64,000 nucleotides of DNA from IMG/VR virus record IMGVR_UViG_3300009788_000087. One strand, written 5' to 3'. Below, one piece after another: positions 18,993-57,521 of this stretch; the first letter of the stretch is position 1; each line of letters starts with the position of its first letter. The DNA is from a virus. The position numbers were made by a program, and so were the translations under genes. The notes under the pieces were generated by a model. It ran no database searches, was not told the origin of the DNA, and saw only the letters and a program-made list of their open reading frames with translations.

Positions 18993-19017
18993 TACGATAT
19001 TACGAGATCTTATAATC

Positions 19018-21759: not shown

Positions 21760-21817
21760 TGTAAGACAAGATTTGTCACATAGTCAGCTACTTATCTAAT
21801 AGAGGCAGGATATAGAA

Positions 21818-25772: not shown

Positions 25773-25773
25773 A

Positions 25774-26073: not shown

Positions 26074-26076
26074 AAC

Positions 26077-27479: not shown

Positions 27480-27492
27480 GATAGGAAGAACT

Positions 27493-27726: not shown

Positions 27727-28145
27727 AAAGACTACCAATTCTACTGCTACTGCTATCCGGATGTGCAGCGGACACCATGCTCTTCTCTCTCATCGATGTC
27801 AGTGATACAGATACTGAGACATGGGAGAAGGTGGAAGCTGGTGCACGAGAGTGGGAGGTGCTAGACATGTACATGGATCCTGAAGGTGAGCCTGTCTACA
27901 TTAGAGTGGAACCCTCACTTGACGGACCTGCTGGTCTTGCGTATCCCAGTGATAGGAAGATCTTCATCAACTCTCTATTTCCCATTAGAATGAAAGGAAC
28001 TGTGACCCATGAACTTGGACATGTGCTCCTTGATCTCGGTCACCTCCCTCCAAAGCTTGGAGTTATGTCGACACCACACCATTCAGACGTGTTGACAGTA
28101 TATGATCTCGAATTTGCATGTGAAGAAGCAGAAAGGTGTTACTAA
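27723..28145 (+). CDS. lipoprotein Zn-metallopeptidase (matrixin-like)
   Basis: Lipobox LSGC; HELGHVLLDLGH; downstream Met-turn-like GVMS. Confidence 0.7.
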   Translation: MKRLPILLLLLSGCAADTMLFSLIDVSDTDTETWEKVEAGAREWEVLDMYMDPEGEPVYIRVEPSLDGPAGLAYPSDRKIFINSLFPIRMKGTVTHELGHVLLDLGHLPPKLGVMSTPHHSDVLTVYDLEFACEEAERCY

Positions 28146-28148
28146 ATA

Positions 28149-29138
28149 ATGGAATTTAAGAAGTGGGTCAAGATCCACCAGTTTCACAATACTCGCAAGG
28201 AGATAAAGCGGAAGATAGACTACCAATTCAGTGTTGGTAATGTTGTACCCTTCCCCAAGGTGACATACCGTGCCAAGGTGAAGCTAGATGGAACCAATGC
28301 TGCAATCCGTATCAAGGATGGAGAGGTCAAGGTCCAATCTCGTAGTCGCTTCATCACACCTGAAGATGACAACTACGGATTCGCCACATGGGTGTACAAG
28401 AACATGGGCTTCTTCACATCGATCCCTGTTCCGTCGAATGTGGATTTCTGCGTGTATGGTGAATGGGCTGGGAAAGGTGTACAAAGGCGAACGTCAGTCT
28501 CAAAAGTAGATCGCAAGTTCTTTCCATTTGCCATCGTCCAGGAGGCTTTAATCTTCACAAACCCTGATAATATTCATGATGCTCTTGGAGATCATGATGA
28601 CATCTTCTCCATTCCGTATCTCGATGGCACCTATACGGTAGACTACGGTTCAGCTGAGTCTCTTTCTCTCTTCCTCGAACGAGTGAATGCTCTATGCGAT
28701 CAGGTGGAGAAGTGTGATCCATTCATTAGAGACCTGTATAATATCGAGGGTCTAGGTGAAGGTGTCGTCATGTATCCCGAGACTCCTATCATGGGACTCG
28801 AGGAATGTTCGTCTCTCATGTTTAAGGTGAAAGGTGAGGAGCATGAGACTGTACGACAGAAACGACCTGCTATCCTTGATCCTGAAGTGGTCAACTCGAT
28901 CTCTGCCTTCACACAAAAGTTCGTGACACCTGCACGCTTGGAGCAGGCAGTAAGAGAGGGATGCAATGGTGAGATTGATGTTAAGAAGACTGGCGACTTC
29001 CTAAAATGGATCGGCAACGATGTCAAGTTAGAATCAGAAGATGAGCTCGAAGTTGCCGGCCTTGAGTGGAAGCATGTTGCCAAGAAGGTGAGCCACACAG
29101 CACGTGAGTGGTGGATTAAGGAGTGTCAGAAGATTTAG
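28149..29138 (+). CDS. Rnl2-family RNA ligase
   Basis: KVKLDGTNAA, QSR, DNYGFA, YGEW, EGVV, FKVK. Confidence 0.85.
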   Translation: MEFKKWVKIHQFHNTRKEIKRKIDYQFSVGNVVPFPKVTYRAKVKLDGTNAAIRIKDGEVKVQSRSRFITPEDDNYGFATWVYKNMGFFTSIPVPSNVDFCVYGEWAGKGVQRRTSVSKVDRKFFPFAIVQEALIFTNPDNIHDALGDHDDIFSIPYLDGTYTVDYGSAESLSLFLERVNALCDQVEKCDPFIRDLYNIEGLGEGVVMYPETPIMGLEECSSLMFKVKGEEHETVRQKRPAILDPEVVNSISAFTQKFVTPARLEQAVREGCNGEIDVKKTGDFLKWIGNDVKLESEDELEVAGLEWKHVAKKVSHTAREWWIKECQKI

Positions 29139-31461: not shown

Positions 31462-31989
31462 TTAACTGACAGGAGAAAAGGAAACATCTGCCAGCTCTAG
31501 GTCGGGTTCCCATGGATCATCGAGTATCTTCAGTGCTTGCTCCACGTGTTTATCAAGCAGACCATCGTTAAAGCCAGTCAATACGAGTCGATGTATTAAT
31601 GTTCCCATATCATCGCCGTCGTCAAGGATTACGAAACTCTCTATCGGATGACGATACAATCTCCATGTCTTGACGGTCCATGAAATTTCATCGCCACGTT
31701 CTTGTTGAGCTTGACCTGCTGTAGCTAGACTAGGTGTCGATCCTATAATACGATGACGTGGAACACCGTGATGACCAAGAATATCCTGAAGCTCAGGCAA
31801 CATGCATACTTTTCTCCATGAAGAAGACACTATGATGTATGCGTCAGTCGCATTAACGATATCCATGAGTCTTGCTACAGCAACTGGATCTATATCAGTA
31901 TGTGTACATATGCTCGTTTGTGGATCTTGTGTACGCATCCACTTCAAGCTATTCAGTACGCCATCGAAGTCAAGAAAGATTAGCTTCAT
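31462..31989 (-). CDS. HAD phosphatase, Swiss-army-knife RNA-repair type
   Basis: IFLDFDGVLN, IVSSSWR, FVILDD. Confidence 0.8.
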   Translation of the reverse strand: MKLIFLDFDGVLNSLKWMRTQDPQTSICTHTDIDPVAVARLMDIVNATDAYIIVSSSWRKVCMLPELQDILGHHGVPRHRIIGSTPSLATAGQAQQERGDEISWTVKTWRLYRHPIESFVILDDGDDMGTLIHRLVLTGFNDGLLDKHVEQALKILDDPWEPDLELADVSFSPVS

Positions 31990-36161: not shown

Positions 36162-36449
36162 TTAGTTTAGTCCTTCTCTTCCACCGCCTGGTTTTCCTGG
36201 GTTCGTGTCAGTGGATACCTCGACGAAATAGGACTCGTCATCATCGATCAGATCACCAGGTTCGATGTCATGCTCACACTCACACACGCCACACGCCACA
36301 CACTCATCACTGGTATCATCTAAGTCAGCGAAAATATCAGCAAGCATTTTCTTTCGAAACTGACGGTCACCCCATTTCATTCCACAAAGGAAGATTAAAG
36401 CCACAGCAATAAGAACAAGAAGCACAACAATCAAATTACTCACGATCAT
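36162..36449 (-). CDS. membrane-anchored hypothetical protein
   Basis: N-terminal TM helix; CVACGVC. Confidence 0.6.
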   Translation of the reverse strand: MIVSNLIVVLLVLIAVALIFLCGMKWGDRQFRKKMLADIFADLDDTSDECVACGVCECEHDIEPGDLIDDDESYFVEVSTDTNPGKPGGGREGLN

Positions 36450-37065
36450 ATCTCCACCCAGTTTCTTGTTTTATCCACGTCAATCTCTCTGATGTCATGC
36501 ATTGTGTTTGCAATCTATAGTCTTCATCATTTTTATATCTTTCAATAAAATGTAAGAAGTCAAACCAGGATTCTACATGCACGTCAGCGCACTGCTCGCC
36601 CCTATTCCATGGTCTGTCTAGACAGACTGACGTGCCACGGAAATCACGTAGATTATGTGCTCCATCATCAAACAACATATCTCCATTGATTAGTTCCTTA
36701 CGATGGCAGACAATGAAATTACTAAGCTTGAACCACGGCATGTAATCACGAAGCCAGTCTTTCTTCTCTTCCACTGCAGTACTTGATCTAATCGGCGAAG
36801 CTGTAGCAATTACTATATCATTGCCATAAGATAATTTAACGGCTCCATCGAGGGCGCCGTCAACGGGTTCCATGTTGAAATAGAATCCAGGTTTACTGAG
36901 ATAATCATAGATTTTCATTCCACACTCAGGCTTTACCCAATAGTGTATGTTCCATCCTCTTATATCCTCGAGCGTGCGGTCATCATCATAGTCGATGTTG
37001 TATGCATCGAGCCACGCTTGATTTGTTTGAACGAGGATGTCATCCATGTCGAGGACGATTAGCAT
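36436..37065 (-). CDS. 5'(3')-deoxyribonucleotidase (HAD, NT5C family)
   Basis: VLDMDDIL, IATAS, EKKDWL, KELINGDMLFDD, DRPWN. Confidence 0.88.
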   Translation of the reverse strand: MLIVLDMDDILVQTNQAWLDAYNIDYDDDRTLEDIRGWNIHYWVKPECGMKIYDYLSKPGFYFNMEPVDGALDGAVKLSYGNDIVIATASPIRSSTAVEEKKDWLRDYMPWFKLSNFIVCHRKELINGDMLFDDGAHNLRDFRGTSVCLDRPWNRGEQCADVHVESWFDFLHFIERYKNDEDYRLQTQCMTSERLTWIKQETGWRYDRE

Positions 37066-37499
37066 TAACGAGTACCATGTTTCCATGCATCACGTTCAGA
37101 TATATCAAACTCATCTTTAGCAAGTGCAATATCTAGATTGACTTCGTTATCTAGAGTCGGACGCTGCAGTTTCTCACAATTCCGCCTCTCTTCCTTGGCA
37201 ATCTTATATGCAAGTAGAGAATACACGAGGTTGTCAAGCAGCTTCTCTTCAATGGGCTCACCTTTCAACGTTTCACCTCGCACCCACTTCTTAATAGACC
37301 TGAGGTGCTTATTCAGTCCGACACCGAGAGCCTGACGCATCGTAATCCCTAAGTCCTTAGCTGTCTCACGGAATTCAGCAAGTCTATCACCTTCTTCAGC
37401 GTAGTCGATTGACTTGGTCTTTAGAATACGAAGAGCCTTGTCGATTAACTCGTCAAAGTCTTCGTCATTAGTATATTTGCTGTGTCCTTTATCACTCAT
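37065..37499 (-). CDS. nucleotide-modification-associated all-alpha protein (DUF1599 / dNTP pyrophosphohydrolase-like)
   Basis: KSIDYA..DRLAEF..KH..EPIEEKLLDNLVY. Confidence 0.55.
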   Translation of the reverse strand: MSDKGHSKYTNDEDFDELIDKALRILKTKSIDYAEEGDRLAEFRETAKDLGITMRQALGVGLNKHLRSIKKWVRGETLKGEPIEEKLLDNLVYSLLAYKIAKEERRNCEKLQRPTLDNEVNLDIALAKDEFDISERDAWKHGTR

Positions 37500-38140
37500 A
37501 TCGTCACTTTCTTATAGAGCATCCCATGTTCTTTCATAGCATCATAGATCTGACGCTCGTACTCATTGATTGGTCCCCATACTTGAGCACGAAAAACTGC
37601 AGCCTCTAATCTATCTCTTATGTATTCCTTAAATGGCCACATGAAATAGTAGTTTAGGCCGGTAAAGTTACTCACATAGTAATCGTAATGCTTGTCTTCG
37701 ACCTTACCATATCTCCATTGTCTAAGGACTACTGAAAGCTGGTATGCTTCAAGCTCCTTCATCATCCTGAAGTATGCTGGAATCGGTAGAGCAAAGAGCA
37801 AGAATAATAGGAACCATGAGTTCCACAGTATTAGAGGTAGCACAATCCCCAACACTCCTAGAATTTGTGGCATCACATATAAGAGTGAGTGTATTATCCT
37901 CGTCTGTCTCTTAGCCTGAAGAATGTGTACGCCTTCATGTGCTAGCACGTTCCAGTTTGGAACGTGCTTTCTGGCTATAGCAATTGTCCATCCAATTGTA
38001 GTGGAGAAATCCATATACTTTGGAAAGATCTTGCCAAGCAATCTATGTTGCCACATCTTATTCTTTGATTTAAGTGTAGCCTTTGGCTGAAATCTCTTGA
38101 TTATTACCAAGACTTTGGTAAAGAAATCGAGGTCGTTCAT
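37496..38140 (-). CDS. membrane protein with HExxH motif
   Basis: LAHEGVHILQ, TM hairpin, ELEAY. Confidence 0.65.
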   Translation of the reverse strand: MNDLDFFTKVLVIIKRFQPKATLKSKNKMWQHRLLGKIFPKYMDFSTTIGWTIAIARKHVPNWNVLAHEGVHILQAKRQTRIIHSLLYVMPQILGVLGIVLPLILWNSWFLLFLLFALPIPAYFRMMKELEAYQLSVVLRQWRYGKVEDKHYDYYVSNFTGLNYYFMWPFKEYIRDRLEAAVFRAQVWGPINEYERQIYDAMKEHGMLYKKVTI

Positions 38141-38892
38141 GATATATCCAACTCTATAATCTGCTTACCACATGCTGCATTCGAAAAGATCGTCGTACCG
38201 CCATCAGTTTCAAAACGACCACGTCCACCGTGTGCATGTCCGTAACAGAACAAGCGTGGCATACGTTTATCATCATCATACAGCCGTTCATTGATCCACT
38301 TAGTAAACTCGTGTGATCCAATATGTTTACTGTATCCCATGTCTAAAATACCATGTGGAGGCGAATGAGATATCACCACATCGAGATCGTCAGGCATCAT
38401 TTCGATGTCCATCCCAATACGTTCAGGATCCCGTTCTCCCCACCATTCATCGCTAAACCTATTCACGCCTCTGAATCCTCCGAATCGTAGTCCACAATAA
38501 TCTTGAAACCGTGTGGAATCGTCAGAGACTTCAAAGTGTTTGCCTCCAAACATTGGACCAAGGTCTGTAAAGTCATGGTTTCCCCGTACGATGACGACTG
38601 GGTTGTGTTTGCAGTTTTTAGGGAAGAAATGTCTGAGCCCGAGTGGTTTCTTCTTGTCTGTAAACTTCCGCTTGAACCAATCAAGCTGTAATCGTTCTTC
38701 TCTTTCATGAACTATCTCGCGCTGGACACAGAAAGGATCATACGGGATCCACCCTCCTTGCCGAGACCGTCGTGGTGACATGTCGACAATCGGATAGTTG
38801 TCTAACATATCTCCTGTTATGACATAAACATCAGCCTCAGGAAATTGACTCCATTGATTGTGCCAGTCTGATACATGTGCTAGCCGCACCAT
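38137..38892 (-). CDS. metallophosphoesterase
   Basis: SDWH, TGD, RGNHD, SHSPPHG, YGHAH. Confidence 0.88.
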   Translation of the reverse strand: MVRLAHVSDWHNQWSQFPEADVYVITGDMLDNYPIVDMSPRRSRQGGWIPYDPFCVQREIVHEREERLQLDWFKRKFTDKKKPLGLRHFFPKNCKHNPVVIVRGNHDFTDLGPMFGGKHFEVSDDSTRFQDYCGLRFGGFRGVNRFSDEWWGERDPERIGMDIEMMPDDLDVVISHSPPHGILDMGYSKHIGSHEFTKWINERLYDDDKRMPRLFCYGHAHGGRGRFETDGGTTIFSNAACGKQIIELDIS

Positions 38893-41019: not shown

Positions 41020-41505
41020 CTATGACACGCATCGTGATGAATGATCTAGGATACACTCGTACGACACCATCCCACTCGAAGGTAATCCAGCTGTACCGTG
41101 CTCATCGACAGGAGTAGATAGCTGTAATGTATCATTCGTCAAGGGCACAAGAGTACCATCACATGTGAGTGTGGGTTCAGTCTGGCTAATATAAATCGTG
41201 TGATCCCATTGTGGTGCTGTGTTCGGAGTGCTCACGGTCGGAGCTGTTCCCCACCAATATTGTGGATAAGACGGAGGATAGACTGGCCAAGTCTGTTGTG
41301 GCCATGCATGTGGCTGCGTACGCTCATGGTTAGTGAGAGCGTCCTGAATCATGCGAGTGACACTCTCCTCGTTTAGAATCCGCTTACCAGTCTTGCTCGA
41401 CTCATTCTTCTTGTCGCCACTGGGCTTCTCGAGTTGAGCCAGTTCCTCAGCTGTGCCTTCAAATTCAATGACAGTGCCGTCAGGCTGTGTTATCTTCTTC
41501 TTCAT
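41020..41505 (-). CDS. hypothetical protein, Pro/Gln/Thr-rich tail
   Basis: MKKKITQPDGTVIEFEGTAEE. Confidence 0.65.
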   Translation of the reverse strand: MKKKITQPDGTVIEFEGTAEELAQLEKPSGDKKNESSKTGKRILNEESVTRMIQDALTNHERTQPHAWPQQTWPVYPPSYPQYWWGTAPTVSTPNTAPQWDHTIYISQTEPTLTCDGTLVPLTNDTLQLSTPVDEHGTAGLPSSGMVSYECILDHSSRCVS

Positions 41506-42016
41506 TATCTGTAATCTCCATCTTCCATTGTGAACCACGACCGAAATCTTTAAGATCCACGCCGTCTATATAGATATCATTCTGACATATAACTTCTACA
41601 GAATTATTCATCAGGAGCTCGATGCCTTCTGTATTCCTGTATAGTTCCGTGTACACGACTTGTTCAATTCCAGCATTTATGATTCGCTTAGAACACATCT
41701 TGCAGGGTGATGTCGTGGTATACAAGCGTTTAAATGAAGGATCATTGAAGTCTAACTTGATGATAGCATTCTCTTCCGCGTGCAAGCATCCACATTTTCC
41801 TGGTTCTTTCGAATCACAACCGTGTGGCCCGCCCTTGTAATTTCCATTGTAGCCGATGGCAAGAACACGATTGTAGTCCCACGATGTGATGACACATCCA
41901 ACTGAGGCTCGCAAACACATACTTCTCTTACTGAGAATATACGCGAATGTCAGATATACGTCAGCCCAGCGAGGACGTGAGACAATCGTTGAGCTCTCCT
42001 CGTATACGTAGCTCAC
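41480..42016 (-). CDS. dCMP deaminase
   Basis: SKRSMC..VGCVI..GYNG, HAEENAI, PCKMC. Confidence 0.92.
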   Translation of the reverse strand: MSYVYEESSTIVSRPRWADVYLTFAYILSKRSMCLRASVGCVITSWDYNRVLAIGYNGNYKGGPHGCDSKEPGKCGCLHAEENAIIKLDFNDPSFKRLYTTTSPCKMCSKRIINAGIEQVVYTELYRNTEGIELLMNNSVEVICQNDIYIDGVDLKDFGRGSQWKMEITDNEEEDNTA

Positions 42017-42351
42017 ACTATCGTGAATACATCTTGATTAGATGTCAGTGCTACAACCACAGCGACAGTGCTACCACGATCGATGGGGATTGAGGCAGCT
42101 AAACACTTCACGTGTGCTTCAACCTCTTGTCCTGGAAGAACGAGTGTTGCTTTGTTGACTAGCTCTAACCCCTGACTGCGTGCATAGTCGCACTCTAACA
42201 ATAATACTGGTACGTTAAAGGTAACACCAAGCGGAACACGTTTAACTTCATCTTCTGCAAGATTAAAATCAAGTGGTGCGCCCAACCTAAGAACTGGTAG
42301 TTCTCCTTTTGGTGTTGTTCCATCGCCTAATTGACATTCTACTATAGCCAT
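42013..42351 (-). CDS. degenerate dUTPase-like beta-fold protein
   Basis: LGAPLDFNLAEDEVKRVPLGV resembles the dUTPase N-terminus; RSG, GxIDxDY and P-loop motifs are absent. Confidence 0.5.
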   Translation of the reverse strand: MAIVECQLGDGTTPKGELPVLRLGAPLDFNLAEDEVKRVPLGVTFNVPVLLLECDYARSQGLELVNKATLVLPGQEVEAHVKCLAASIPIDRGSTVAVVVALTSNQDVFTIV

Positions 42352-42362
42352 AATCTTTCCCT

Positions 42363-43490
42363 TTATCTATTCACTACGTTTTCAATCTTATCCACGAAAT
42401 TGGATACATCCATAAATCTTAGCTTCTCTATGTTCTTTGACCTGATGTCATCACGTTCTTTTACACTGATAGTTGCGAGGTTTTCAACGATGAAACACAG
42501 CTCATTAGGATCATCAGCTATGAACTCCACATAGTCTTCGATACCTAAGTGTGGTTTCAGGCCGACAGGTATCGTACCAAATAACAGCGCTTCCCATGGT
42601 CGAGGAGTAATGAACCCGCTCTCAAGGTATGACTGCTTACCAAGCAATGGACACGCAGCTGCAGTACCATACACACGTCTGAAATCTGATATCGTTATAC
42701 GTTCGTTATACAAGACATACGGCCATTTCAATCTGCATTCAGTAAGGTTCGGTTCGCGTGTCCAGTTGCCCCAAAACTCTACTTCAAACCTAAATGCCTC
42801 GCTGACAGGTGCTATCCACTTATCGATGACATCATCTCTTTCGTACCTTGATCCAATGTAAACGAGCTTTCTACTCTTACTAACGGGGAGTGTTGGGAAC
42901 TGGTATAGATCATCTACTACGATTGGCGGCTCCACTCTTGTTCTATAAAATCCGTAGTCCAACGGTTTGACTGACGTCTCAAAGATTGCATCGGGTGCCC
43001 ACTTCACCTCATCCTCTAGCGTTAGTTTATGATCTAGATCCCACAGTATAATCTTGGTGCTCTTACCTTTGAAGTATTCAAGTATCTGCGTCTGTCTATC
43101 AAGGTCTGACTGATAGCCCACATCATTAATATCTATGTCAATGTTCCTACCTGGAATTGGGAAGCGCCATTCAATGAGAAGCACGTCAAGTTCGGGTAGT
43201 TCATCCAATTCAGTCAATGAAATGTCTGCTGTTGTTAACGTCTTGAACGATCTACGCCATGCATTATATCGTTTTTCAGTAGAGAATGAAGAGAATGCAT
43301 TATGAAACTTACCACTCACATATTCAAAGTCACGATCACGTTGAAGTAAATACGTCTCCCATCCTCGCTTCTGTGCTTCATGAAGAATGGACCATGAGTA
43401 CGCTGCATTACCATCAGGGGTGGAAACTTCCTTGCCGAACTCGAATTTACGATCAGCGATGAATCCCCAGTATGCGTAACCTAATCTCAC
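42363..43490 (-). CDS. GT-B fold glycosyltransferase (putative DNA/nucleotide glycosyltransferase)
   Basis: MRLGYAYWGF..TPDG, WDLDHKL, LVYIGSRYERD, GFITPRPWEALLFGTIPV (C-terminal GT-B pattern); gene context. Confidence 0.65.
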   Translation of the reverse strand: MRLGYAYWGFIADRKFEFGKEVSTPDGNAAYSWSILHEAQKRGWETYLLQRDRDFEYVSGKFHNAFSSFSTEKRYNAWRRSFKTLTTADISLTELDELPELDVLLIEWRFPIPGRNIDIDINDVGYQSDLDRQTQILEYFKGKSTKIILWDLDHKLTLEDEVKWAPDAIFETSVKPLDYGFYRTRVEPPIVVDDLYQFPTLPVSKSRKLVYIGSRYERDDVIDKWIAPVSEAFRFEVEFWGNWTREPNLTECRLKWPYVLYNERITISDFRRVYGTAAACPLLGKQSYLESGFITPRPWEALLFGTIPVGLKPHLGIEDYVEFIADDPNELCFIVENLATISVKERDDIRSKNIEKLRFMDVSNFVDKIENVVNR

Positions 43491-43759
43491 TTAGTTTGCT
43501 TGTGGGGATATGATGGAGAAGATGGGCGCCCACTTGGGTGAATGTCATATTCGATACTGCCATGTTTACTCGGGTGATATGCATCAGAAGCATTCGCTTG
43601 AGTTGCATATGGTATTAGCTTCTTAAATCTTTCAAGTTGTGTAACTTTAATTATAAGCTCGTTAATCTGTGCTTCACGTGTCTTACTTGGAACAACAGGA
43701 AGTAACCAAATCGAGAACCTAAAGAACTTTATCGATAGCCATTTTCTAAATCTTCTCAT
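43487..43759 (-). CDS. hypothetical protein
   Basis: Overlaps both neighbours by 4 nt. Confidence 0.55.
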   Translation of the reverse strand: MRRFRKWLSIKFFRFSIWLLPVVPSKTREAQINELIIKVTQLERFKKLIPYATQANASDAYHPSKHGSIEYDIHPSGRPSSPSYPHKQTK

Positions 43760-44301
43760 AACTCTACCTTTACACCGCTATCTGAATTTAGACTGCGTAT
43801 TAGGTTAATCTTTTCCGTGAGTTGCGGCAACTGTCGTTCAATGTCATCATCGTAGTCATCAACAAAGATCTTAATAACATGACAATTCGTCTGATGATAG
43901 AATCTCGTATATCTATTATGTAGTGCTTCTAATTTGTGTGATTCTACGAGCTCATCATTTACTACAGAATAATCATGACGCAGACACATTACGACAATAG
44001 CACCCATCTCGCTCCACTCACTATCAATTCGATTCAGTGGTTCAGAAAGTGTTGAGCGTCCATACACGTCTGAATACACGATCTCTGATATGTAGCATCT
44101 ATCTGACACAAACGCAGTGTCTGTCTGTCTCACAAACTCAGGTAACAGTATATCAAATGGAATAGAGCTTGTAAAACAATCATTGATCCAGTTTGATTTT
44201 TCAGTTGTTACCTTGAAATATGGGATCCCATAGTGATTAGAGAGAGCGTGGGAAATATGAGTTTTGCCGCATCCGTCTGGACCTTCTACAAAGATGATCA
44301 T
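43756..44301 (-). CDS. dNMP kinase (thymidylate-kinase-like)
   Basis: IFVEGPDGCGKT P-loop; SDRCYISEIVYS. Confidence 0.85.
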   Translation of the reverse strand: MIIFVEGPDGCGKTHISHALSNHYGIPYFKVTTEKSNWINDCFTSSIPFDILLPEFVRQTDTAFVSDRCYISEIVYSDVYGRSTLSEPLNRIDSEWSEMGAIVVMCLRHDYSVVNDELVESHKLEALHNRYTRFYHQTNCHVIKIFVDDYDDDIERQLPQLTEKINLIRSLNSDSGVKVEL

Positions 44302-44996
44302 GGTTTTCTTACACACCAATAATCTGAGGGTGCTTGCCCTTCTTCGTTCGACCATCTTTCGTGCTCTATTGGAAGATCGTGTAGAGGACTATAAAACATA
44401 TCACCTACTGCAGCCATCACACCTTTCCAATATTCGCAGTAATCATCACCGAACATAATGCCACCAGCACGAAGTAGTGGCCAGTATGCTTCGAGATCTG
44501 CTAAGACATCTTCATACTCATGGCTACCATCAATGTAGATGAGGTCTGCTTGCACGTCTTTCTTTCGCAATAGACGAGCAGCATTTGTTGATGTCTGTGG
44601 AAATGGTGTGATTCGACCTTGGTTCCCAGTTATAATTACATTTGCAAGAAACTGATAGTATACTTGTGGATAACCATTACACAACTCGAGAGACTTGTAT
44701 CTCTTCTCGTCCTTGTGGTCCTCCCAAAATTCTGTCGCACCAAGCCATGTATCAACACATGTAATCTCAGTCTTACCTCTTAACTCTGGATCTGCGCCGC
44801 ATATATCTGCCATCGTGATCGCAGACTTACCTTTCCATGTACCAACCTCAATGATAAGTTCAGGTTTTACTTCATCGATCTTCTTCTTGAAATATTCATA
44901 ATGTCCGCCCCAACCTTGAGCATCGAATGAATATGCTACTAAAGGAAAATCCTTGTAGATGTCATGGTCGTAAAGAATATCATAGATTCTACTCAC
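44298..44996 (-). CDS. class I SAM methyltransferase (Methyltransf_24-like)
   Basis: IEVGTWKGKSA, CVDTW, LIYIDGSHEYEDV, GGIMFGDDY. Confidence 0.85.
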   Translation of the reverse strand: MSRIYDILYDHDIYKDFPLVAYSFDAQGWGGHYEYFKKKIDEVKPELIIEVGTWKGKSAITMADICGADPELRGKTEITCVDTWLGATEFWEDHKDEKRYKSLELCNGYPQVYYQFLANVIITGNQGRITPFPQTSTNAARLLRKKDVQADLIYIDGSHEYEDVLADLEAYWPLLRAGGIMFGDDYCEYWKGVMAAVGDMFYSPLHDLPIEHERWSNEEGQAPSDYWCVRKP

Positions 44997-46077
44997 TGCC
45001 AACCCCTTTGAATAATCCTGCCCAGATCTGCATGGCTTTGCCGAGCTTCTTGAAGTAGTCCGTATATTCGGGGAATTCATCATACTTGGTGATGTGTTTT
45101 CCGAGATGCATGTATATCGTATTAGCTTCTATATAACCTTCAACTATTCCAGGATGATCGAATGAGTCTACATACTCCCACAGCTTCTCATTCACCTCGA
45201 GACCATTTGCTTCCTTCTTTAGGTTGGTGAATGGATTGGATGCACGCTCGTGCCTGATGTATGGAATCCCGGTGCTGACAGTTTTACCTAGAATATCTGC
45301 GCACTTCTTCATAAAGATGCCGCACCATATGTCACCGAAGCGATCGAATGGAAGTTTTTTCAAAGTTGTATATGGTTTCAATTCAAAGTCTTCTGGCGTA
45401 ACTTTAGGTTTCAACTGTTGCCCCATCAGTAAGTGATACATCAGTACCGTGTACTCTGCTTTCCACATCACGTTCATCCCACACATGGGGAAGTATGAAC
45501 CATGGGGCACGATCTTATTGTCATAGGCAAACTTCTCTTCTACGGGATTGACGAGCTGAGTGGGCGCATCATAGTCTATTACATTCGTCCACAGCCCGTG
45601 ATTTACAATCGTATCGTTCCGTTCACCAAGATTGTAGAACGGTATTCCACGAGGTTTCACACAGTCGAGAGTATTGAACCATCTTGTGCGGCCACCATTG
45701 AGATATTTCTTGTGTTGCTCGACGAATCCTTTGCCATCATATATGTGATCCATCGGATAGCAGTCATCATCGAGTGTCATGATGTACCTATAGCCACATG
45801 AATGCGCATACCAATATGCAAAACTTCTGACAGTATCAGATCTTCGTGGGATTATCCACTCATCCTCACCAAGTCCATCCCGGATATTTTTCCAACACAA
45901 ATGTACGATATTATTTTTGGAACCATCAAAAACTTTGAATGTCTTTGTTGGATTGTCTTCCATAACAAACAGGTCTACATGATCGAATAGACCGATATCA
46001 TTCCACCTCTTATAAAAATCAGTGAAGCAATTCTCACGAATCGTAGGAACTATTAATGCGATTTCTTTAGCGATCAT
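44989..46077 (-). CDS. RGP / UDP-arabinopyranose mutase family protein (GT-A fold)
   Basis: IVPTIR, TLDDDC, WFNTL, PRGIPF, NHGLW..DYDAPTQL, FPMCGMN, RFGDIWCG, HERASNPFTNLKKE. Confidence 0.88.
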   Translation of the reverse strand: MIAKEIALIVPTIRENCFTDFYKRWNDIGLFDHVDLFVMEDNPTKTFKVFDGSKNNIVHLCWKNIRDGLGEDEWIIPRRSDTVRSFAYWYAHSCGYRYIMTLDDDCYPMDHIYDGKGFVEQHKKYLNGGRTRWFNTLDCVKPRGIPFYNLGERNDTIVNHGLWTNVIDYDAPTQLVNPVEEKFAYDNKIVPHGSYFPMCGMNVMWKAEYTVLMYHLLMGQQLKPKVTPEDFELKPYTTLKKLPFDRFGDIWCGIFMKKCADILGKTVSTGIPYIRHERASNPFTNLKKEANGLEVNEKLWEYVDSFDHPGIVEGYIEANTIYMHLGKHITKYDEFPEYTDYFKKLGKAMQIWAGLFKGVGSE

Positions 46078-46080
46078 CTT

Positions 46081-49000
46081 TTATCCCTCTACCTCATCCA
46101 CATTAATTAATGCACCATCTGCACTGTATTCACTGTGTGCCCATCCCGGTTTGCCAAGCACGAGATTCTGTGGTTCATCCAGCTTTCTATTGAAGGTGGC
46201 AAAGAATACATTACCCTTCACTGCTTTCTTCGCAATGTACCGCCAGATTGTTGCGAAGCACGGTGCGTCAAACTCAGTCCCATTTCTGTCACCGAACTTA
46301 ATGAATGCCATCATGCCACCACGAGACTGAGCACGTTCACGGACATCTTTAATGATTACAGGGATGACACCGATTTTATCCTCTGACTTCACAAACTCTT
46401 CAAAGTCTTGAACCATGCCTTCCTTAGCAAGTATCTCTATCTTCTTATCCCTATCGAATAGTTTGAATGGTGTACCAATAAGATTGAATCCAAGCAACTC
46501 ATTCTCATACTCTACAAGCTTAGCGATTGGATGCGGTTCACACTCAAGAGCAAAGTACTGCTCTTCAAATTCAGCTTTCTTTTTCTTGACGCGAAGCTTT
46601 GGATTGTCCTGCCACAATTCATACCTCAACTCAGTCAGCGCCATGTTCTCTTCCAATGAAGTAAACGCACCGACCTTGATAAGGGGAACCGTTGCAGTCT
46701 TACCACCGCCTGTCTTATAGAGATAATCACGTAGACTCTCATACGGTTGGCTCTTCTCAATCTTCTTAACAGCTGCGTCACCGACACCCAACGCAGAACC
46801 AAGTGCTAACCTGATCGCAACACCCTCAATCTTGTGAAAAGCACTCGATTTATTGATATCTACCGGCAGAATCTTAAATCCCTGACGCTTGATGTCGTCC
46901 ACATAAGATTGAAGATCATCTGCTTTACCATGAATTAGAAGTGCTGTAAAGAATTCAAGTGGATAGTATGTTCGAAGGAATGCAGTCTGCATGGAGATCA
47001 TAGCATAGCACTTGGCATGACTGGCATTGAAACCATATCCACCAAAGTGCTCGAACATATTCCATAGTTCAAGACCCTGCTTCTCAGTCAATCCATTCTC
47101 TACACATCCCTTAACGAATGGTTCTCTTAGCTCCTTCTTCTCGTTCTGAAGGAAGTCATCCTTCTTTGACTTGTCTTTCTTTAGGAACAGCTTCCTAAGT
47201 CTGTTGACATGTGTCATCGGTAGCTTACCGAGGTGGTGACCGATGTTTAACATCTGTTCCTGATATACAAGACAACCGTAAGTCTCCTTCATGATCTCTT
47301 CCATCATGGGATGCACATATTTGATCTTGTCAGGGTTGTGTTTGTTCTCAGCGTATAGCTTATGCATGCCTGAACCAAGTGGTCCCGGTCTATAGATCGC
47401 ACCGATCGCTGACACGTCATTGAAGCAGTCAGGTTTAATCCGTTGAGCTACTTTCCTGATACCTTTGTTTGTAAACTGAAATATGCCCGTGAAATTCCCG
47501 TCGATGAAGACTGTCTTGATTACTTTCTGATCATCGATGTCCATGTACGTTGGATCGACCATCTTATATGCTTCATCATAATTCATGTCATGTCGTTTAG
47601 ATATTAGCCTAAGTGCACGGTCGATGACCGATAGAGTTGAAAGCGACAGTATGTCAAACTTGACAAATCCCATCGCTGAACATTGCTTGTTAACAATCCC
47701 GTCAGTGAACGATGTTTGTAGAACTCCTTTATTCTGGAATAGAGCCATCTCTCGAGGTAGGTTGTCTCCGATAACGAGGCCACAAGCATGACGTCCCACG
47801 TGACGATTCTTCCCATACAACTTAGTGATATTTTCACCGATGACGGGATACTTCTCGACGAGAGCTCTGTAAGTAGGAGAGACTCTAACGACATCTTCGT
47901 ACTTGATGTCGATGGTGGACTTGTCTTGGCCTTTACCTCGCAAGACTCGAAGCTCGCCCTCGATTTTCTTGTTTGCCTTGTTGATCTCTCGATGGTCGAT
48001 ATCATAGACACGTGCTATATCCTTGAGTAGTCCCTTAATTTGGAATGTACCGTATGTGCTGATGCAAGCGACGTTGTCGTGACCGAACATCTCACGGAGC
48101 ATTTCGCGCGCTTGCTCGCTATCTTGAAAATCAGTATCAATGTCAGGAAGCTCGACACGGGAAGGGTTAATAAATCGCTCGAATAGAAGATTATGTTTAA
48201 TGGGATCGAGATCTGTGAGACCACTGAGGTAACAAACAAGAGAACCAGCAGCACTACCACGTCCCGGTCCCACGAGCATTTGCTCTTTGGCTTTGGTAAT
48301 GATGTCACGCATAATGAGGAAGTATGAGGCAAAACCCTTCTCCTTAATCAGCTTCATTTCATGCATGAAGCGTTTACGATACTGCTCATCATCAGTGAGG
48401 TTCAGCTCTTTCATCCTCGCAATGGCCACCTCACCCAGTTTCTTGAATGGATGCTCGAACCTACACGTTGGAAGCCTCTCTTCCGTATTAGGTTCATAGT
48501 CTTCAACCATCGAGTCAATGAGCAGTGTATTTTCAAATGCCTCACGAACAAGATTTGCATCTGCATCGCCACCAAAGCGCTCGAATGTTTCCCACATCTC
48601 TTGAGGTGACTTAATGTAGAGCTGCTTGATATTAAAATCCCAGTCATCTCCTCTTGTCGACATCGTCTTCTGACTGCGAAGCATGTAAAGAATTTCCTGC
48701 GCAGCCCACTCGTCTGAGTTCACGTAGTGTGAATCGCATGTTACATTGAGCGGGATTCCAGTCTCATGATGCACTTTGATAATAGACTCGTTGATAAATC
48801 GCTGAGAATCAGACTCGTTGAACTGCAGCTCAAGGAAGAATCTGTCACCGAAGATCTCCTTATATTCTTCAGCTTCACGAACGACATCACTCCACTCAGC
48901 GTCACCGTTCTTCCATGCCCAGCACCTATTAGCAATGACTCCGCCCATGCACGCTGAAGACGCGATGACTCCGTTACCGAAATCATTCATCATCCTCTTA

Positions 49001-49464
49001 TCGATCCTCGGCTTCATGTACATGCCCTCCTTGTGCGCAAGGTGTGTGAGGTTGTACAAGTTATCGAGACCCGCCTGATTCTGTGCTATGAGAACAAGGT
49101 GACCTTTCCTATAGAGAGACTTCTGTCTACTCTTCATATCGAGATTGGTAGCATCTTCATCTACCGCCTCAGACTTCTTTAGCTTCTTCAGTGACTCCTT
49201 GTCGGACTCTAACTTTGCTTTCTCTTCTGACCACTTCTTTAGATCATCAATCGCATATGCTTCAACACCGTAGATTGTGCGGACTCCATGTTTCTTTCCA
49301 TGCAGATAAAAATCTGCAATACCATGCATATGCCCATGATCAGTTAGTGCAATAGAGCAAAGACCTTTCTCCTTCGCTTTAAGGACCATGTCTTCAGGTC
49401 GAGACAGACCATCCATGAAACTGAAGTGGGAGTGATTGTGCAGACTAGCAAAATCTTTTATCAT
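46081..49464 (-). CDS. dnaE: DNA polymerase III alpha subunit (family C, DnaE-type)
   Basis: PHP domain HNHSHFS..ALTDHG, GRGSAAGS, PDIDTDF, GRHACG, KFDIL, YQEQ, YGFNASHA. Confidence 0.96.
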   Translation of the reverse strand: MIKDFASLHNHSHFSFMDGLSRPEDMVLKAKEKGLCSIALTDHGHMHGIADFYLHGKKHGVRTIYGVEAYAIDDLKKWSEEKAKLESDKESLKKLKKSEAVDEDATNLDMKSRQKSLYRKGHLVLIAQNQAGLDNLYNLTHLAHKEGMYMKPRIDKRMMNDFGNGVIASSACMGGVIANRCWAWKNGDAEWSDVVREAEEYKEIFGDRFFLELQFNESDSQRFINESIIKVHHETGIPLNVTCDSHYVNSDEWAAQEILYMLRSQKTMSTRGDDWDFNIKQLYIKSPQEMWETFERFGGDADANLVREAFENTLLIDSMVEDYEPNTEERLPTCRFEHPFKKLGEVAIARMKELNLTDDEQYRKRFMHEMKLIKEKGFASYFLIMRDIITKAKEQMLVGPGRGSAAGSLVCYLSGLTDLDPIKHNLLFERFINPSRVELPDIDTDFQDSEQAREMLREMFGHDNVACISTYGTFQIKGLLKDIARVYDIDHREINKANKKIEGELRVLRGKGQDKSTIDIKYEDVVRVSPTYRALVEKYPVIGENITKLYGKNRHVGRHACGLVIGDNLPREMALFQNKGVLQTSFTDGIVNKQCSAMGFVKFDILSLSTLSVIDRALRLISKRHDMNYDEAYKMVDPTYMDIDDQKVIKTVFIDGNFTGIFQFTNKGIRKVAQRIKPDCFNDVSAIGAIYRPGPLGSGMHKLYAENKHNPDKIKYVHPMMEEIMKETYGCLVYQEQMLNIGHHLGKLPMTHVNRLRKLFLKKDKSKKDDFLQNEKKELREPFVKGCVENGLTEKQGLELWNMFEHFGGYGFNASHAKCYAMISMQTAFLRTYYPLEFFTALLIHGKADDLQSYVDDIKRQGFKILPVDINKSSAFHKIEGVAIRLALGSALGVGDAAVKKIEKSQPYESLRDYLYKTGGGKTATVPLIKVGAFTSLEENMALTELRYELWQDNPKLRVKKKKAEFEEQYFALECEPHPIAKLVEYENELLGFNLIGTPFKLFDRDKKIEILAKEGMVQDFEEFVKSEDKIGVIPVIIKDVRERAQSRGGMMAFIKFGDRNGTEFDAPCFATIWRYIAKKAVKGNVFFATFNRKLDEPQNLVLGKPGWAHSEYSADGALINVDEVEG

Positions 49465-49474
49465 ATTCCGTATT

Positions 49475-49786
49475 CTAACTGATCGATTTCTTAGAAGACT
49501 TACTAATAGGTATTTCAGCGAGATATCCGCTTAAGACACTATCTCTAAGTCGTTCGTCAACGTAGGCTCTTTTTGCTTCTTCAAATGAACAACGACTCCA
49601 TCGTTCATTTCCAAGAGAATCTTTACTAAGAGACTCTGTAACGACATAAATCTCATATTGCTTGCCATTAATCCCTACATTTAGAAGATGATAAGGATCG
49701 TCTGCTCTCTCGGATGCAATGAAACGATAGTCCTTACATGATAACACAACTCTCGGTAGTTTTAGATTTTTAGTAACCACTTTCAA
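49475..49786 (-). CDS. hypothetical protein
   Basis: ORF track. Confidence 0.6.
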   Translation of the reverse strand: MKVVTKNLKLPRVVLSCKDYRFIASERADDPYHLLNVGINGKQYEIYVVTESLSKDSLGNERWSRCSFEEAKRAYVDERLRDSVLSGYLAEIPISKSSKKSIS

Positions 49787-50150
49787 ACCTTTCTTTTACA
49801 ACTCGGTTCTTACGACAGAACTCATTGTACATCTCTTGTGGTGAGATGCCGGACAGTATACAGATCTCCATGAAATACGCCAATGTATCTCCTAGCTCTT
49901 CAACATAGTGTGAACGATCGAATTCCCTATCATCAGTCACTTTATGTATCTTGTTCTTCAGAGTATACGTTGCCTCCCACAGTTCATTGTGACAGTCACT
50001 AACGATCTCCTTGATCATACGTTGACCCTGTTTAGTTGTCAAATCAATCGGCCAAGGAGGTAGGACATCACGTTCTTCCAATATCTGCATGTTCCCCTCT
50101 TGGCGATAGAACATGTCTTTCCATAAGTCAGTTGAAAGTGACATCGTCAC
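49770..50150 (-). CDS. MazG-like all-alpha dNTP pyrophosphohydrolase (putative dCTPase/dUTPase)
   Basis: NELWEA...VEELGDTLAYF acidic ExxE/EExxD helices. Confidence 0.75.
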   Translation of the reverse strand: MTMSLSTDLWKDMFYRQEGNMQILEERDVLPPWPIDLTTKQGQRMIKEIVSDCHNELWEATYTLKNKIHKVTDDREFDRSHYVEELGDTLAYFMEICILSGISPQEMYNEFCRKNRVVKERFESGY

Positions 50151-50550
50151 TCCTTACCTTATAAGTCTGCGGACCGGACGCATCAGTTATCAGGCACTTA
50201 CCAACGTTAGACACGAGATCCCACGCGCATGATGGGTGCCAATAACTTTCAAGCAAACCCTGCACCTTTGATCGCATAAAATCATTCTCACTGAATAAGA
50301 TGATTGTCCCTACATTTATACAACATAGATGCCCGATGAGTTCGTCGGTCAACTCGACACCCCTTACAAAGATCTTATCGTAGACCTTCGAGTAGTTGAG
50401 ATCAGATACGTCTTCTACATGATCCAATTCAGCTACATACTTCTTCATGAACGACATTGGATCTGCACCAAGGAACAGCATCCTATCAGAAGACCTAACT
50501 CCTGTCACGTCAGAGACGTCATCACATTTGCTATACGGATTCTTTGTCAC
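50128..50550 (-). CDS. hypothetical protein
   Basis: Between the TS-like and MazG-like genes. Confidence 0.6.
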   Translation of the reverse strand: MTKNPYSKCDDVSDVTGVRSSDRMLFLGADPMSFMKKYVAELDHVEDVSDLNYSKVYDKIFVRGVELTDELIGHLCCINVGTIILFSENDFMRSKVQGLLESYWHPSCAWDLVSNVGKCLITDASGPQTYKVRSDDVTFN

Positions 50551-51511
50551 GTTTTTCCTTATGCTCCACTAGTTGTTGAAACATCCACAATAGAGTTTCA
50601 TTCTGTACTGGCAATGATTTTGGTAGTAGTGCACCAGTTCGAAGGCATTCCTCTGCCGTTATTAGAATATCTAGCTCCTCAAGATTACTCAGCGGTGCCA
50701 TCGGTTCAGTGAATTTACCTCGTTTTGGACTAGAATCTTTTATCCACTTCGCATACCTTTGCCTATGTTCATTCAACATCTTCTCTGATAATTCGTAGTG
50801 TCGATCATAGACATGGAGTGAACCAGTTGTGTGATAATACAGACCAAGCTCTAAGTCTGGATAGTGTTTCTTTAGCTCTAATAACATGCACTCTTGAAAG
50901 AGAGTGAACGAGAATAAATCATACGTCAGTCCCCAGTGTACATCATTTGAGCGCATATTGACATGGAGATGTAGCTTATTCTCTCGAATAAAGAATTGAA
51001 GAGAAAGCGTGCACGGTACATCTTTGGATCCTTCAGTATCTGCATTAAACTGATGTACTGGTTGGTGGATTTGCAACACTGCTCTTCTGCTATCTTTGTC
51101 AGATTTAAGCGTGTTAATACAGATTTTCCACTGGTCAACTTTTGCTGCTTTATCTGGTCCTGTTGGTGCCATCCCATGAATGATATGACCATACGCAGAT
51201 ACTACAGTCTTTCCGTCATCTGAAAACTGCGGCATCCTCTTGTTGTAGTACGTCATCTCCTCAAGAGAGTTCGAGCCGCGCCAATACCAAAGGAACTCAC
51301 CGACTGCAAACGCATATTTAGACTTACGGACTTTAGATGATAGTAGTCTGTTACGAGGATCACTGAGGATCAAGCGAGGTACTAAGACTTCTCTTACTTC
51401 AGTGCCACGTGGTTTGCAAACATAGTCAGGGAAAGACATCTCCATGAGGACATCGTACATCAACTCATCGAAGCTATCCTTGACAAACCTATATCCCACC
51501 ATTGGCTTCAT
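50531..51511 (-). CDS. thymidylate-synthase-fold enzyme, dCMP hydroxymethylase-like
   Basis: EFLWYWRG, AYG, DSRRA, DVPCT, MRSNDVHWGLTYD (Asp where TS has Asn), SLHVY. Confidence 0.85.
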   Translation of the reverse strand: MKPMVGYRFVKDSFDELMYDVLMEMSFPDYVCKPRGTEVREVLVPRLILSDPRNRLLSSKVRKSKYAFAVGEFLWYWRGSNSLEEMTYYNKRMPQFSDDGKTVVSAYGHIIHGMAPTGPDKAAKVDQWKICINTLKSDKDSRRAVLQIHQPVHQFNADTEGSKDVPCTLSLQFFIRENKLHLHVNMRSNDVHWGLTYDLFSFTLFQECMLLELKKHYPDLELGLYYHTTGSLHVYDRHYELSEKMLNEHRQRYAKWIKDSSPKRGKFTEPMAPLSNLEELDILITAEECLRTGALLPKSLPVQNETLLWMFQQLVEHKEKRDKESV

Positions 51512-52416
51512 GGGTGTATGACCTCAAGCAATTCTTCGATAGTCTTCCTATCAATCGGGTGTCCTGCGGCTCTAGCATGTCCGCCGCCTCCAAACTGTTT
51601 CGCTATCTCTGTTGCGTCCACTTTTTCTGTGCTCCTAATGCTCGCGACACCACCAAAGCTATTCAACTTAATTCCAATCGCCACATCACAATCATGTCGT
51701 TCCATGACACGCTGTAGAAGTTGTGATTGGTGATCGCTACAGAAAACATAGGCACACTTCACACCATCTAACTCTTTAAAGAATGGTTTCTCTGAGTGTT
51801 TCTCAATGTATTTATCTCTCTTGGATTCGAGGACCTTCACGACATTCAAGTCTGCGTCTGTCATTAGTGGATAACATTTCCTAATCCTGTATGTCATCAT
51901 GTCCACGAACTTTTCTTGACCGAAGAAGTTAGCAAAAAGACTGAGCTGATCAGATTTTGGATCCTTTCGTATCCACATGTCACGATCATTGATCATTTCA
52001 GCGAAGTTCCAAACTGCACCCCAATGATCATCAGGTTCACCATTTTCAAACAGATAGTCGTAGAGTAAGAATGTGCCACACTTCTCCATGTTGATGTGAC
52101 ACCAATCTCTGTCTTTAAGATCGAGTGCAGTCTTGTGGTGATCGATGATTGTTATGTCACCGTGGTACAGCTTCTCAAATAGATCAGCTGTCTCAGTATC
52201 ACATGCAACATCAGCTATGATTACACGATCATGTGTCTCAAATACGTCTTGGTTCTTCTTATAGAAATCTCTAACACCATTTCCCGCAGGAACGTAGTGG
52301 ATATTCTCTTTCTTGCCGCCAGCGAGGAGGAACACGACTGCACAACCTGAACCGTCGCTACAACCTTTATGAGTTATTAGTACTGAATTCTTTAGTTCAT
52401 CAGGTTTATATTTCAC
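51508..52416 (-). CDS. DHH/DHHA1 phosphoesterase
   Basis: ITHKGCSDG, IADV, IDHHKT, GGGHARAAG. Confidence 0.88.
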   Translation of the reverse strand: MKYKPDELKNSVLITHKGCSDGSGCAVVFLLAGGKKENIHYVPAGNGVRDFYKKNQDVFETHDRVIIADVACDTETADLFEKLYHGDITIIDHHKTALDLKDRDWCHINMEKCGTFLLYDYLFENGEPDDHWGAVWNFAEMINDRDMWIRKDPKSDQLSLFANFFGQEKFVDMMTYRIRKCYPLMTDADLNVVKVLESKRDKYIEKHSEKPFFKELDGVKCAYVFCSDHQSQLLQRVMERHDCDVAIGIKLNSFGGVASIRSTEKVDATEIAKQFGGGGHARAAGHPIDRKTIEELLEVIHP

Positions 52417-56957: not shown

Positions 56958-57521
56958 TTATCCTGTTAGTTCAAGATCACACTCGACCTCATTGCCCCAT
57001 GAATCCCAACCGTCTGTTTTCTCTCGTGCAAACAGCTCGATGCGCGGTACATAGCTGACAATCTCTATCATCTCTCGCATCTCATCAGGTTTCTGCGAAT
57101 GTCTCTGACGTGGTGCTATGATCGCAGTTCTACCTTGCAGACGACCACCTTCTTCATTTCTTCGATAGGGTAGTCGACCCATGACACCGAACAGACATGA
57201 TTCAGACGCTCCTCTGAAATACTGTCCTAGCCCACACTGCAGTTTCTTGTTAACCTTGACCCAGTCTATCTTCGTAACATACCTGAATCCCCAAGACTGC
57301 ATAATCCTAAGACCGTGTGGCAAGAAGTTATTCGTCACCCACATGTAAAGATGAGAACCTTGTTCATCAGCTATATCACGAACAGGGAGTGCCTCGATCT
57401 CAGCAAGAGACATGACTGGATAGTGTCTATCAGAACCCCAACTTCTTCCTGTCTTATCTTTACCACCAACTTCTTTCCACGGAGGATCAACTAGTATTGT
57501 TCTATATCTCTGATCAGTCAT
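56958..57521 (-). CDS. MT-A70 family N6-adenine methyltransferase
   Basis: ILVDPPW, HYPVM, LYMWVTN, SWGF, HSQKP, IELFARE, WGNE. Confidence 0.9.
   Translation of the reverse strand: MTDQRYRTILVDPPWKEVGGKDKTGRSWGSDRHYPVMSLAEIEALPVRDIADEQGSHLYMWVTNNFLPHGLRIMQSWGFRYVTKIDWVKVNKKLQCGLGQYFRGASESCLFGVMGRLPYRRNEEGGRLQGRTAIIAPRQRHSQKPDEMREMIEIVSYVPRIELFAREKTDGWDSWGNEVECDLELTG

Follow-up and report, generated by a model that had tools for sequence, protein, structure and literature searches.

A GT75-family mutase homolog within a putative cytosine hypermodification cluster of uncultured phages

Results

We analysed a 64,000-nucleotide stretch (hereafter, the window) of the IMG/VR virus record IMGVR_UViG_3300009788_000087, which comes from an uncultured phage of about 196 kb with a longest contig of 196,492 bp, and concentrated on a gene cluster that may serve to replace cytosine in the phage DNA with a glycosylated derivative. 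The gene map places the putative modification genes at positions 41480-52416, in a continuous run on the minus strand in which neighbouring genes overlap by at most 59 nucleotides or are separated by at most 24; all the cluster genes described below lie on this strand. A preliminary description of the sequence had named six genes in a tight run flanking the gene for a DnaE-type polymerase, coding for a thymidylate synthase (TS) homolog, a MazG-like pyrophosphatase, an RGP-family protein, an S-adenosylmethionine (SAM)-dependent methyltransferase, a deoxynucleoside monophosphate (dNMP) kinase and a GT-B glycosyltransferase. Family searches and AlphaFold2 modelling recovered all six, on the minus strand and within these limits. 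Promoter and terminator scans gave the same result as scans of shuffled sequence, and it is the packing of the genes alone that suggests their co-transcription.

The TS homolog (positions 50531-51511; PF00303, E = 1.2e-24) carries the motif MRSNDVHWGLTYD. Among sequences in the PDB it best matched the CMP hydroxymethylase MilA (6e-32), with thymidylate synthases (about 1e-15) and the T4 dCMP hydroxymethylase (7.5e-15) scoring lower. The window protein and 119 homologs of its clade were aligned with E. coli ThyA, T4 gp42, RB69 gp48 and SPO1 gp29, all taken from public records, and residues are given here in E. coli ThyA numbering. The T4 gp42 pattern (E58, R126, R127, C146, R166, S167, D169, N177D, H207 and Y209) was found in 120/120 clade sequences, all of which thus keep the catalytic Cys146 and the residues of the folate chemistry, E58, R166, H207 and Y209. 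All 120 also have an Asp three residues ahead of the catalytic Cys, in a DVP-C or DLP-C motif, which places an acid at the position of ThyA L143. Where ThyA has N177, an Asp confers selectivity for cytosine; an acid at L143 admits water and accompanies hydroxymethyl, not methyl, products (PMC13326640). RB69 gp48 departs from the T4 gp42 pattern, with Asn at position 169 and Phe at positions 58 and 209; Asn in place of D169 is the mark of the flavin-dependent 5-hydroxy-dCMP synthases and is present in all those tested (PMC13326640). Ribo-specific MilA is in turn marked by Ala at S167 and Lys at R126 (PMC5175136). We considered both types of enzyme and rejected them: a synthase of the RB69 gp48 type needs Asn169, where the window protein and all its homologs (120/120) have Asp, and a MilA-type CMP hydroxymethylase needs Ala167 and Lys126, where Ser and Arg are found in 120/120. 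No second TS homolog was found in the window. Since the T4 gp42 pattern is present in every clade sequence and the window holds no other TS homolog, we predict from these residues that the enzyme is a folate-dependent dCMP hydroxymethylase, its product being 5-hydroxymethyl-dCMP rather than dTMP, 5-hydroxy-dCMP or 5-hydroxymethyl-CMP. An enzyme of this type had been proposed from the contrast between Asp in T4 gp42 and Asn in E. coli ThyA; the two motifs quoted then agree with the real sequences, and the assignment now holds at all ten diagnostic positions.

The RGP homolog (positions 44989-46077) belongs to family GT75, which it matches over residues 4-360 of 362 (PF03214, E = 4.1e-39). Members of GT75 are metal-dependent mutases that interconvert the pyranose and furanose forms of nucleoside diphosphate (NDP) sugars via a glycosylated Arg, and they have been characterised only for the plant UDP-arabinopyranose mutases (UAMs) and the actinomycete proteins MtdL and Hyg20 (PMC9937993). 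A profile of 34 RGP homologs matched the plant UAM 8cid (2e-25) and MtdL (1e-20). In the alignment with MtdL, residues D81, DDD103-105, R143, R246, D249, H276 and R278 of the window protein correspond to D87, DDD109-111, R159, R257, D260, H287 and R289, respectively. All of these residues, together with the S80 that precedes D81, are invariant across the 34 homologs; the eight catalytic or binding positions compared are those that could be placed against MtdL. Because these positions are invariant and the profile matches both UAM and MtdL, the GT75 protein looks catalytically competent, as far as its sequence tells.

The same protein had been described as a plant-type UAM. Its place in GT75 and its catalytic residues bear out the family, but it is a member of a bacterial and phage subfamily and not specifically plant-type. 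At the position of MtdL residue 86 the window RGP has Ser, as does the GDP-specific MtdL, where the plant proteins have Asp, although the N-terminal base-binding residues are not reliably alignable; the S86D substitution in MtdL abolished GDP binding. Given this MtdL-like Ser-Asp pair, UDP cannot be assumed as the nucleotide carrier of the window RGP, and neither is arabinose established as the sugar. The window protein also has the motifs PMCGMN and H-x-R-ASNPF-x-NLKKE, which are plant-like. To our knowledge, the only known GT75 substrates are L-arabino-configured sugars such as L-Ara, L-Fuc and L-Gal. The equilibria of GT75 enzymes favour the pyranose form, so that close coupling to a transferase specific for furanoses would be reasonable. 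The closest cellular relatives, at no more than 42% identity, are encoded by metagenome-assembled genomes (MAGs) of Planctomycetota, Chloroflexota, Acidobacteriota, Patescibacteria and others, and in none of the cellular RGP loci examined were the genes of the phage cluster present. In a quick maximum-likelihood tree, a branch with SH-aLRT 95 separates the 34 phage RGPs from the cellular copies. Among GenBank phages RGP had a single match, in the huge phage LR756511 (38% identity); this copy lies elsewhere in the tree and appears to represent a separate use of GT75 by a phage, of the glycan type.

The GT-B glycosyltransferase, of 375 amino acids (GT375; positions 42363-43490), had no match in the family searches, Pfam included. 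Its AlphaFold2 model (pLDDT 91.6) has the two Rossmann domains of the GT-B fold, as proposed in the preliminary description, and the top five Foldseek matches of the model were all complexes of the T4 alpha-glucosyltransferase (AGT) with DNA (6e-11); the T4 beta-glucosyltransferase (BGT) was listed too. Aligned with hhalign, the GT375 family profile matched T4 BGT with an E-value of 1.9e-5 and a probability of 77.7% over 239 columns, which supports homology. In this alignment the catalytic D100 of BGT corresponds to E107 (Glu for Asp); of the BGT residues that bind the UDP phosphates, S189 corresponds to S214, R195 to R218 and R269/E272 to R297/E300, whereas R191 corresponds only approximately to R215; the BGT numbers were verified on the actual BGT sequence. 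E107, S214, R218, R297 and E300 are invariant in 36 GT375 homologs. The model and the profile alignment lead us to predict that GT375 is a relative of T4 BGT and a glycosyltransferase acting on 5-hydroxymethylcytosine (5hmC) in DNA. We also considered the isoelectric point (pI) as a discriminator of DNA binding and rejected it: the values are 5.1 for GT375, 5.7 for the family median, 6.1 for T4 AGT and 9.05 for T4 BGT, and because T4 AGT itself has a pI of 6.1, the acidic pI of GT375 is no argument against DNA binding.

The MazG-like nucleoside triphosphate pyrophosphohydrolase (positions 49770-50150) is a candidate dCTPase, analogous to T4 gp56; its domain was detected by PHROGs alone (phrog_12184, E = 3.4e-15), with no match in Pfam or NCBIfam. 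A P-loop dNMP kinase of the thymidylate type (positions 43756-44355; phrog_761, thymidylate kinase, E = 2.4e-13, with AAA_28 and dNK matches) is predicted to act on 5-hydroxymethyl-dCMP, and its match with RB69 gp45 is confined to the P-loop. The last gene of the block codes for a dCMP deaminase (positions 41480-42016; PF00383, E = 2.5e-17). DnaE, the replicative polymerase (positions 46081-49464), has PHP, DNA_pol3_alpha, finger and HHH_6 domains. Lastly, the SAM methyltransferase (positions 44298-44996) is of the CmcI/rhamnosyl-O-methyltransferase type (PF13578, Methyltransf_24, E = 1e-20; PF04989, E = 4.6e-8) and is a candidate sugar O-methyltransferase. Its open reading frame (ORF) spans positions 44298-45083, with the start placed at 44996 (232 amino acids) in gene calls on identical contigs, and its match to the NCBIfam rhamnosyl O-methyltransferase was far below the cut-off. 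In two Patescibacteria MAGs (L036, positions 9506-9988, and L037), the gene directly upstream of the cellular RGP is Methyltransf_24/CmcI-like, which is the same pairing as in the window, and since the pairing recurs there it can be argued that the methyltransferase acts on the furanose sugar.

The gene order RNR (ribonucleotide reductase)-DHH-TS-u140-MazG-DnaE-RGP-kinase-GT-dCMP deaminase, in which u140 is a conserved protein of 140 amino acids, was found, with amino-acid identities of 35-60%, in seven IMG/VR loci, and one NCBI contig retains the part from DnaE to GT. The arrangement is not due to chance, because it recurs in these seven loci and in part in the NCBI contig. Conserved synteny in other phages, which the preliminary description had suggested looking for, therefore extends to the core of TS, MazG, DnaE, RGP, kinase, GT and dCMP deaminase. 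RGP, kinase and GT are adjacent to one another, between DnaE and the dCMP deaminase, and the kinase is syntenic in 8/8 relatives. The MazG-like protein is 52-55% identical in all seven IMG/VR loci, which cover its position, and the deaminase follows the GT in 7/7; GT375 is 45-53% identical in all the relatives, and DnaE 45-56%. One of the loci (L005) has, between MazG and DnaE, a gene for a second glycosyltransferase (positions 2083-3123, plus strand; GT4-conflict/Glycos_transf_1, a weak match) and an extra AAA_28 kinase-like gene. This suggests that the putative DNA glycan varies within the clade; a second glycosyltransferase is what one would expect if such a glycan were diversifying.

The spread of the cluster was gauged from the match lists. 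At least 120 RGP clusters (formed at 90% identity) have at least 54% identity to the query, and the GT homologs numbered 321, many of them on contigs of 190-207 kb. Contigs of at least 20 kb common to the match lists numbered at least 18 for RGP and GT and at least 15 for RGP and TS, many again of 190-207 kb; these counts pair contigs of exactly equal length in base pairs and are a proxy only. In GenBank phages, a megablast search with the cluster and a tblastn search with GT375 gave zero matches each. The best DnaE identity to GenBank phages was 33%, which places the lineage as unrelated to that of T4.

The remaining genes of the block are less readily assigned. Directly upstream of the TS homolog lies a gene for a DHH/DHHA1 phosphoesterase (positions 51508-52416; PF02272, E = 6e-7), syntenic in L006 and L007. 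The product of u140 (positions 50128-50550), encoded between the TS homolog and MazG and syntenic in L001-L005, had no match in Pfam, PHROGs or NCBIfam; its AlphaFold2 model (pLDDT 91.9) has a small Rossmann, methyltransferase-like fold, which in Foldseek matched class I methyltransferases weakly (E about 5e-4, TM about 0.5). A search of 1.84 billion representative proteins yielded only 26 relatives. Three further ORFs were likewise without match in Pfam, PHROGs and NCBIfam: one of 103 amino acids (positions 49475-49786), with no tblastn match in the related loci, a basic one of 90 amino acids (positions 43487-43759; pI 10.3), and an acidic one of 112 amino acids (positions 42013-42351), with none detected in the relatives.

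All the cluster genes fall inside a module for replication and nucleotide metabolism. Upstream of the cluster are genes for RNR, DnaB, a 5'-3' exonuclease, an MT-A70 methylase, RecA and a gp32-like protein, and no surface-glycan flippase or polymerase was found among the genes of the window. The MT-A70 family methyltransferase (positions 56958-57521, minus strand) is part of the replication module, and methylated adenine may also occur in the DNA. Downstream of the cluster, an NT5C-type 5'-deoxynucleotidase (positions 36436-37086, minus strand) and a calcineurin-like phosphoesterase (positions 38137-38892, minus strand) may shape the nucleotide pool. Farther away, a protein of at least 723 amino acids (positions 61765-63936, minus strand), whose reading frame leaves the end of the window, has a cytidylyltransferase-like nucleotidyltransferase domain at residues 218-373. 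On the plus strand, at positions 19094-21759, there is a pair of genes for NAD salvage, coding for an NadM-type NMN adenylyltransferase fused to Nudix and a nicotinamide phosphoribosyltransferase, and the pair is also present in the relative L074. A set of genes for nucleic-acid repair occupies positions 24567-29138 (plus strand) and 31462-31989 (minus strand) and comprises an RtcB ligase, an ATP-dependent DNA ligase, an RNA ligase and an HAD_SAK_2 domain protein.

Discussion

From the gene content, active-site signatures, folds and synteny observed here, we infer the substrates of all the enzymes, DNA as the target, and what can be said of the sugar and its nucleotide carrier. The best reading, to which we give a probability of roughly 0.55, is that 5hmC enters the DNA by a route like that of T4 and then receives a furanose. 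Along this route, the MazG-like pyrophosphatase would drain dCTP to dCMP, which the TS homolog would convert to 5-hydroxymethyl-dCMP with methylene-tetrahydrofolate. The phage dNMP kinase, together with the NDP kinase of the host, could then raise 5-hydroxymethyl-dCMP to the triphosphate, and the phage DnaE would place 5hmC in DNA instead of cytosine, while the dCMP deaminase would supply dUMP and so sustain the dTTP pool. After replication, the GT75 enzyme may convert an NDP-pyranose to the furanose form in a metal-dependent reaction via the conserved Arg143, and GT375, with Glu107 as the putative catalytic base, would transfer this furanose to the hydroxymethyl group at C5 of cytosine in DNA. 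In the window phage and a minority of its relatives, the CmcI-like methyltransferase may O-methylate the sugar. Stated in full, the proposal is that a clade of uncultured phages of about 200 kb replaces cytosine with an undescribed 5-(furanosyl-oxymethyl)cytosine, the sugar being O-methylated in some, with the donor made by a cofactor-independent, metal-dependent GT75 mutase; in this specific form we hold it tentatively, at somewhat less than even odds.

Several observations weigh against this route. GenBank phage searches with the cluster, DnaE and GT375 revealed no cultured relative, and family searches of the window proteins revealed no enzyme that forms an NDP-pyranose; an epimerase of PF01370 was likewise not found in the two viral fragments examined. 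The specificities of MazG and the kinase are assumed by analogy with T4, and the GT375 profile gave no sequence signal against T4 AGT. The methyltransferase is present in only one of the eight relatives (L006) and absent from the other 7/8. Because it is thus limited to the window and 1/8 relatives, the O-methylation considered possible in the preliminary description is at most an accessory decoration. Finally, cellular RGP homologs occupy polysaccharide loci, with GT2 in 33 of about 50, plus epimerase/dehydratase, DegT and Wzx genes, and in the phage LR756511.1 (L075, 595 kb; positions 18450-23133) RGP shares its operon with genes for two sulfotransferases, a methyltransferase and a carbohydrate-binding protein of the F5/8 type C.

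It is these cellular and huge-phage contexts of RGP that keep alive the main rival explanation, in which the cluster combines two unrelated functions: the TS homolog, MazG and the kinase would lead to plain 5hmC in DNA or to altered nucleotide pools, and the GT75 protein, the GT-B enzyme and the methyltransferase would glycosylate a virion protein or a component of the host envelope. The company that RGP keeps in those loci, with GT2, epimerase, DegT and Wzx in cells and with sulfotransferases and a carbohydrate-binding protein in LR756511, fits such a role. On the other hand, the RGP-kinase-GT segment is locked between DnaE and the dCMP deaminase in 8/8 relatives, none of the cluster genes matches a glycan-export family, and GT375 is related to T4 BGT at the profile level, retains the catalytic residues and has DNA glucosyltransferases as its top Foldseek matches. 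We regard a non-DNA glycan as unlikely, although it is the alternative that we take most seriously.

Very unlikely, in our estimate, is that the GT75 protein acts as a glycosyltransferase and not as a mutase, adding the first or second sugar to DNA or protein, with GT375 using a host pyranose donor such as UDP-glucose and no furanose involved. GT75 proteins do have a GT-A domain and glycosylate themselves on a conserved Arg, but this own Arg is the only acceptor to which GT75 is known to transfer sugar (PMC9937993). The T-even phages and RB69 use at least two DNA glycosyltransferases (PMC13326640), which would suit a second transferase; the residues specific to the MtdL mutase, however (D87, R159, R257, D260 and H287), are all invariant in the phage clade. 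Least probable of all, with a slim chance at best, is a different C5 group as the product of the TS homolog, be it 5-methyl-dCMP, for which phage XP12 is the example, 5-hydroxy-dCMP as in RB69, or 5-hydroxymethyl-CMP for a non-DNA product as with MilA. The best PDB sequence match is indeed MilA, and the product specificity of the TS family has brought surprises before, in RB69 gp48 (PMC13326640). Yet the clade keeps Asp169 where all tested 5-hydroxy-dCMP synthases have Asn, and E58 and Y209 where RB69 gp48 has Phe at both; the acid at the L143 position goes with hydroxymethyl and not methyl transfer, and Ser167 and Arg126 mark deoxyribo substrates, in contrast to the Ala and Lys of MilA.

Should the furanose route on 5hmC hold, GT75 would for the first time have a part in the modification of nucleic acids, and a furanose would for the first time be attached to 5hmC rather than to 5-hydroxycytosine. 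Phages would then have a third means of acquiring a furanose donor, distinct in mechanism from the arabinose-5-phosphate isomerase route and from that of the flavin-dependent UDP-galactopyranose mutase (UGM). Hypermodification protects phage DNA from restriction enzymes and many CRISPR nucleases, and type IV restriction and glycosylase defences are directed at such DNA. Which of these defences work changes with each new DNA sugar. As the clade is large, the modification could be common in environmental viromes and may bias their sequencing. A BGT-like enzyme that transfers furanosyl groups, used with a metal-dependent mutase, could serve in the labelling of 5hmC.

T4, RB69/DLP3, RL38J1 and metavirome surveys already provide examples of the general scheme, in which a TS homolog and a GT-B DNA glycosyltransferase are combined with sugar-nucleotide enzymes. 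One recognised class, that of the metavirome clusters associated with 5mYOX/TET or ThyS, has BGT-like GT-B genes beside genes for TS homologs and sugar-nucleotide enzymes; in the survey of these clusters, the words mutase, furanose, arabinose and pentose have 0 occurrences each (bioRxiv 10.1101/2023.12.21.572611). In the searchable literature we found no link between GT75/RGP and phage DNA, so that the earlier statement that an RGP-based route to a phage DNA glycan may be undescribed still applies. Like the plant UAMs, MtdL and Hyg20 (PMC9937993), the window RGP has a DDD metal site, the Arg that becomes glycosylated in these enzymes, and catalytic Asp and His residues, and its match to the family extends over the full length, whereas the known roles of the cellular GT75 enzymes concern cell-wall and antibiotic sugars and not nucleic acids.

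The closest parallels for the sugar supply come from other phages. In the Rhizobium phage RL38J1 (Pootjesviridae), whose DNA contains galactosyl/glucosyl-5-hydroxycytosine, a phage NDP-sugar mutase has also been proposed to feed a DNA glycosyltransferase (PMC13326640), but this is a flavin-dependent Glf/UGM mutase, unrelated to GT75 in fold and mechanism, and the base is 5-hydroxycytosine rather than 5hmC. RB69 and DLP3, whose pathway leads to arabinofuranosyl-5-hydroxycytosine, likewise rely on a TS homolog, a kinase and DNA glycosyltransferases to attach a furanose to cytosine substituted at C5, and these phages encode the donor supply themselves (PMC13326640). There, however, 5-hydroxycytosine is made via a flavin-dependent TS homolog with Asp169 changed to Asn, while the cluster keeps Asp169, E58 and Y209, and NDP-arabinofuranose is built from ribulose-5-phosphate by an arabinose-5-phosphate isomerase, a kinase/pyrophosphorylase and a phosphatase, where the cluster would instead contract the ring of an NDP-pyranose (PMC13326640). 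The second, GT4-like glycosyltransferase of L005 recalls the multiple transferases of the T-even and RB69-type phages. With T4 itself, which uses the gp56 dCTPase, gp42, the gp1 dNMP kinase, alpha- and beta-glucosyltransferases and the Cd deaminase, the cluster shares both the logic and the enzyme classes: its TS homolog has all the diagnostic residues of gp42, GT375 is homologous to the beta-glucosyltransferase, and the cluster includes a pyrophosphatase of the MazG type as well as a kinase and a dCMP deaminase. It differs in that its polymerase is of the DnaE type and that of T4 of family B, in its optional methyltransferase and, above all, in the insertion of a GT75 mutase, which implies a furanose in place of the sugar that T4 draws directly from host UDP-glucose.

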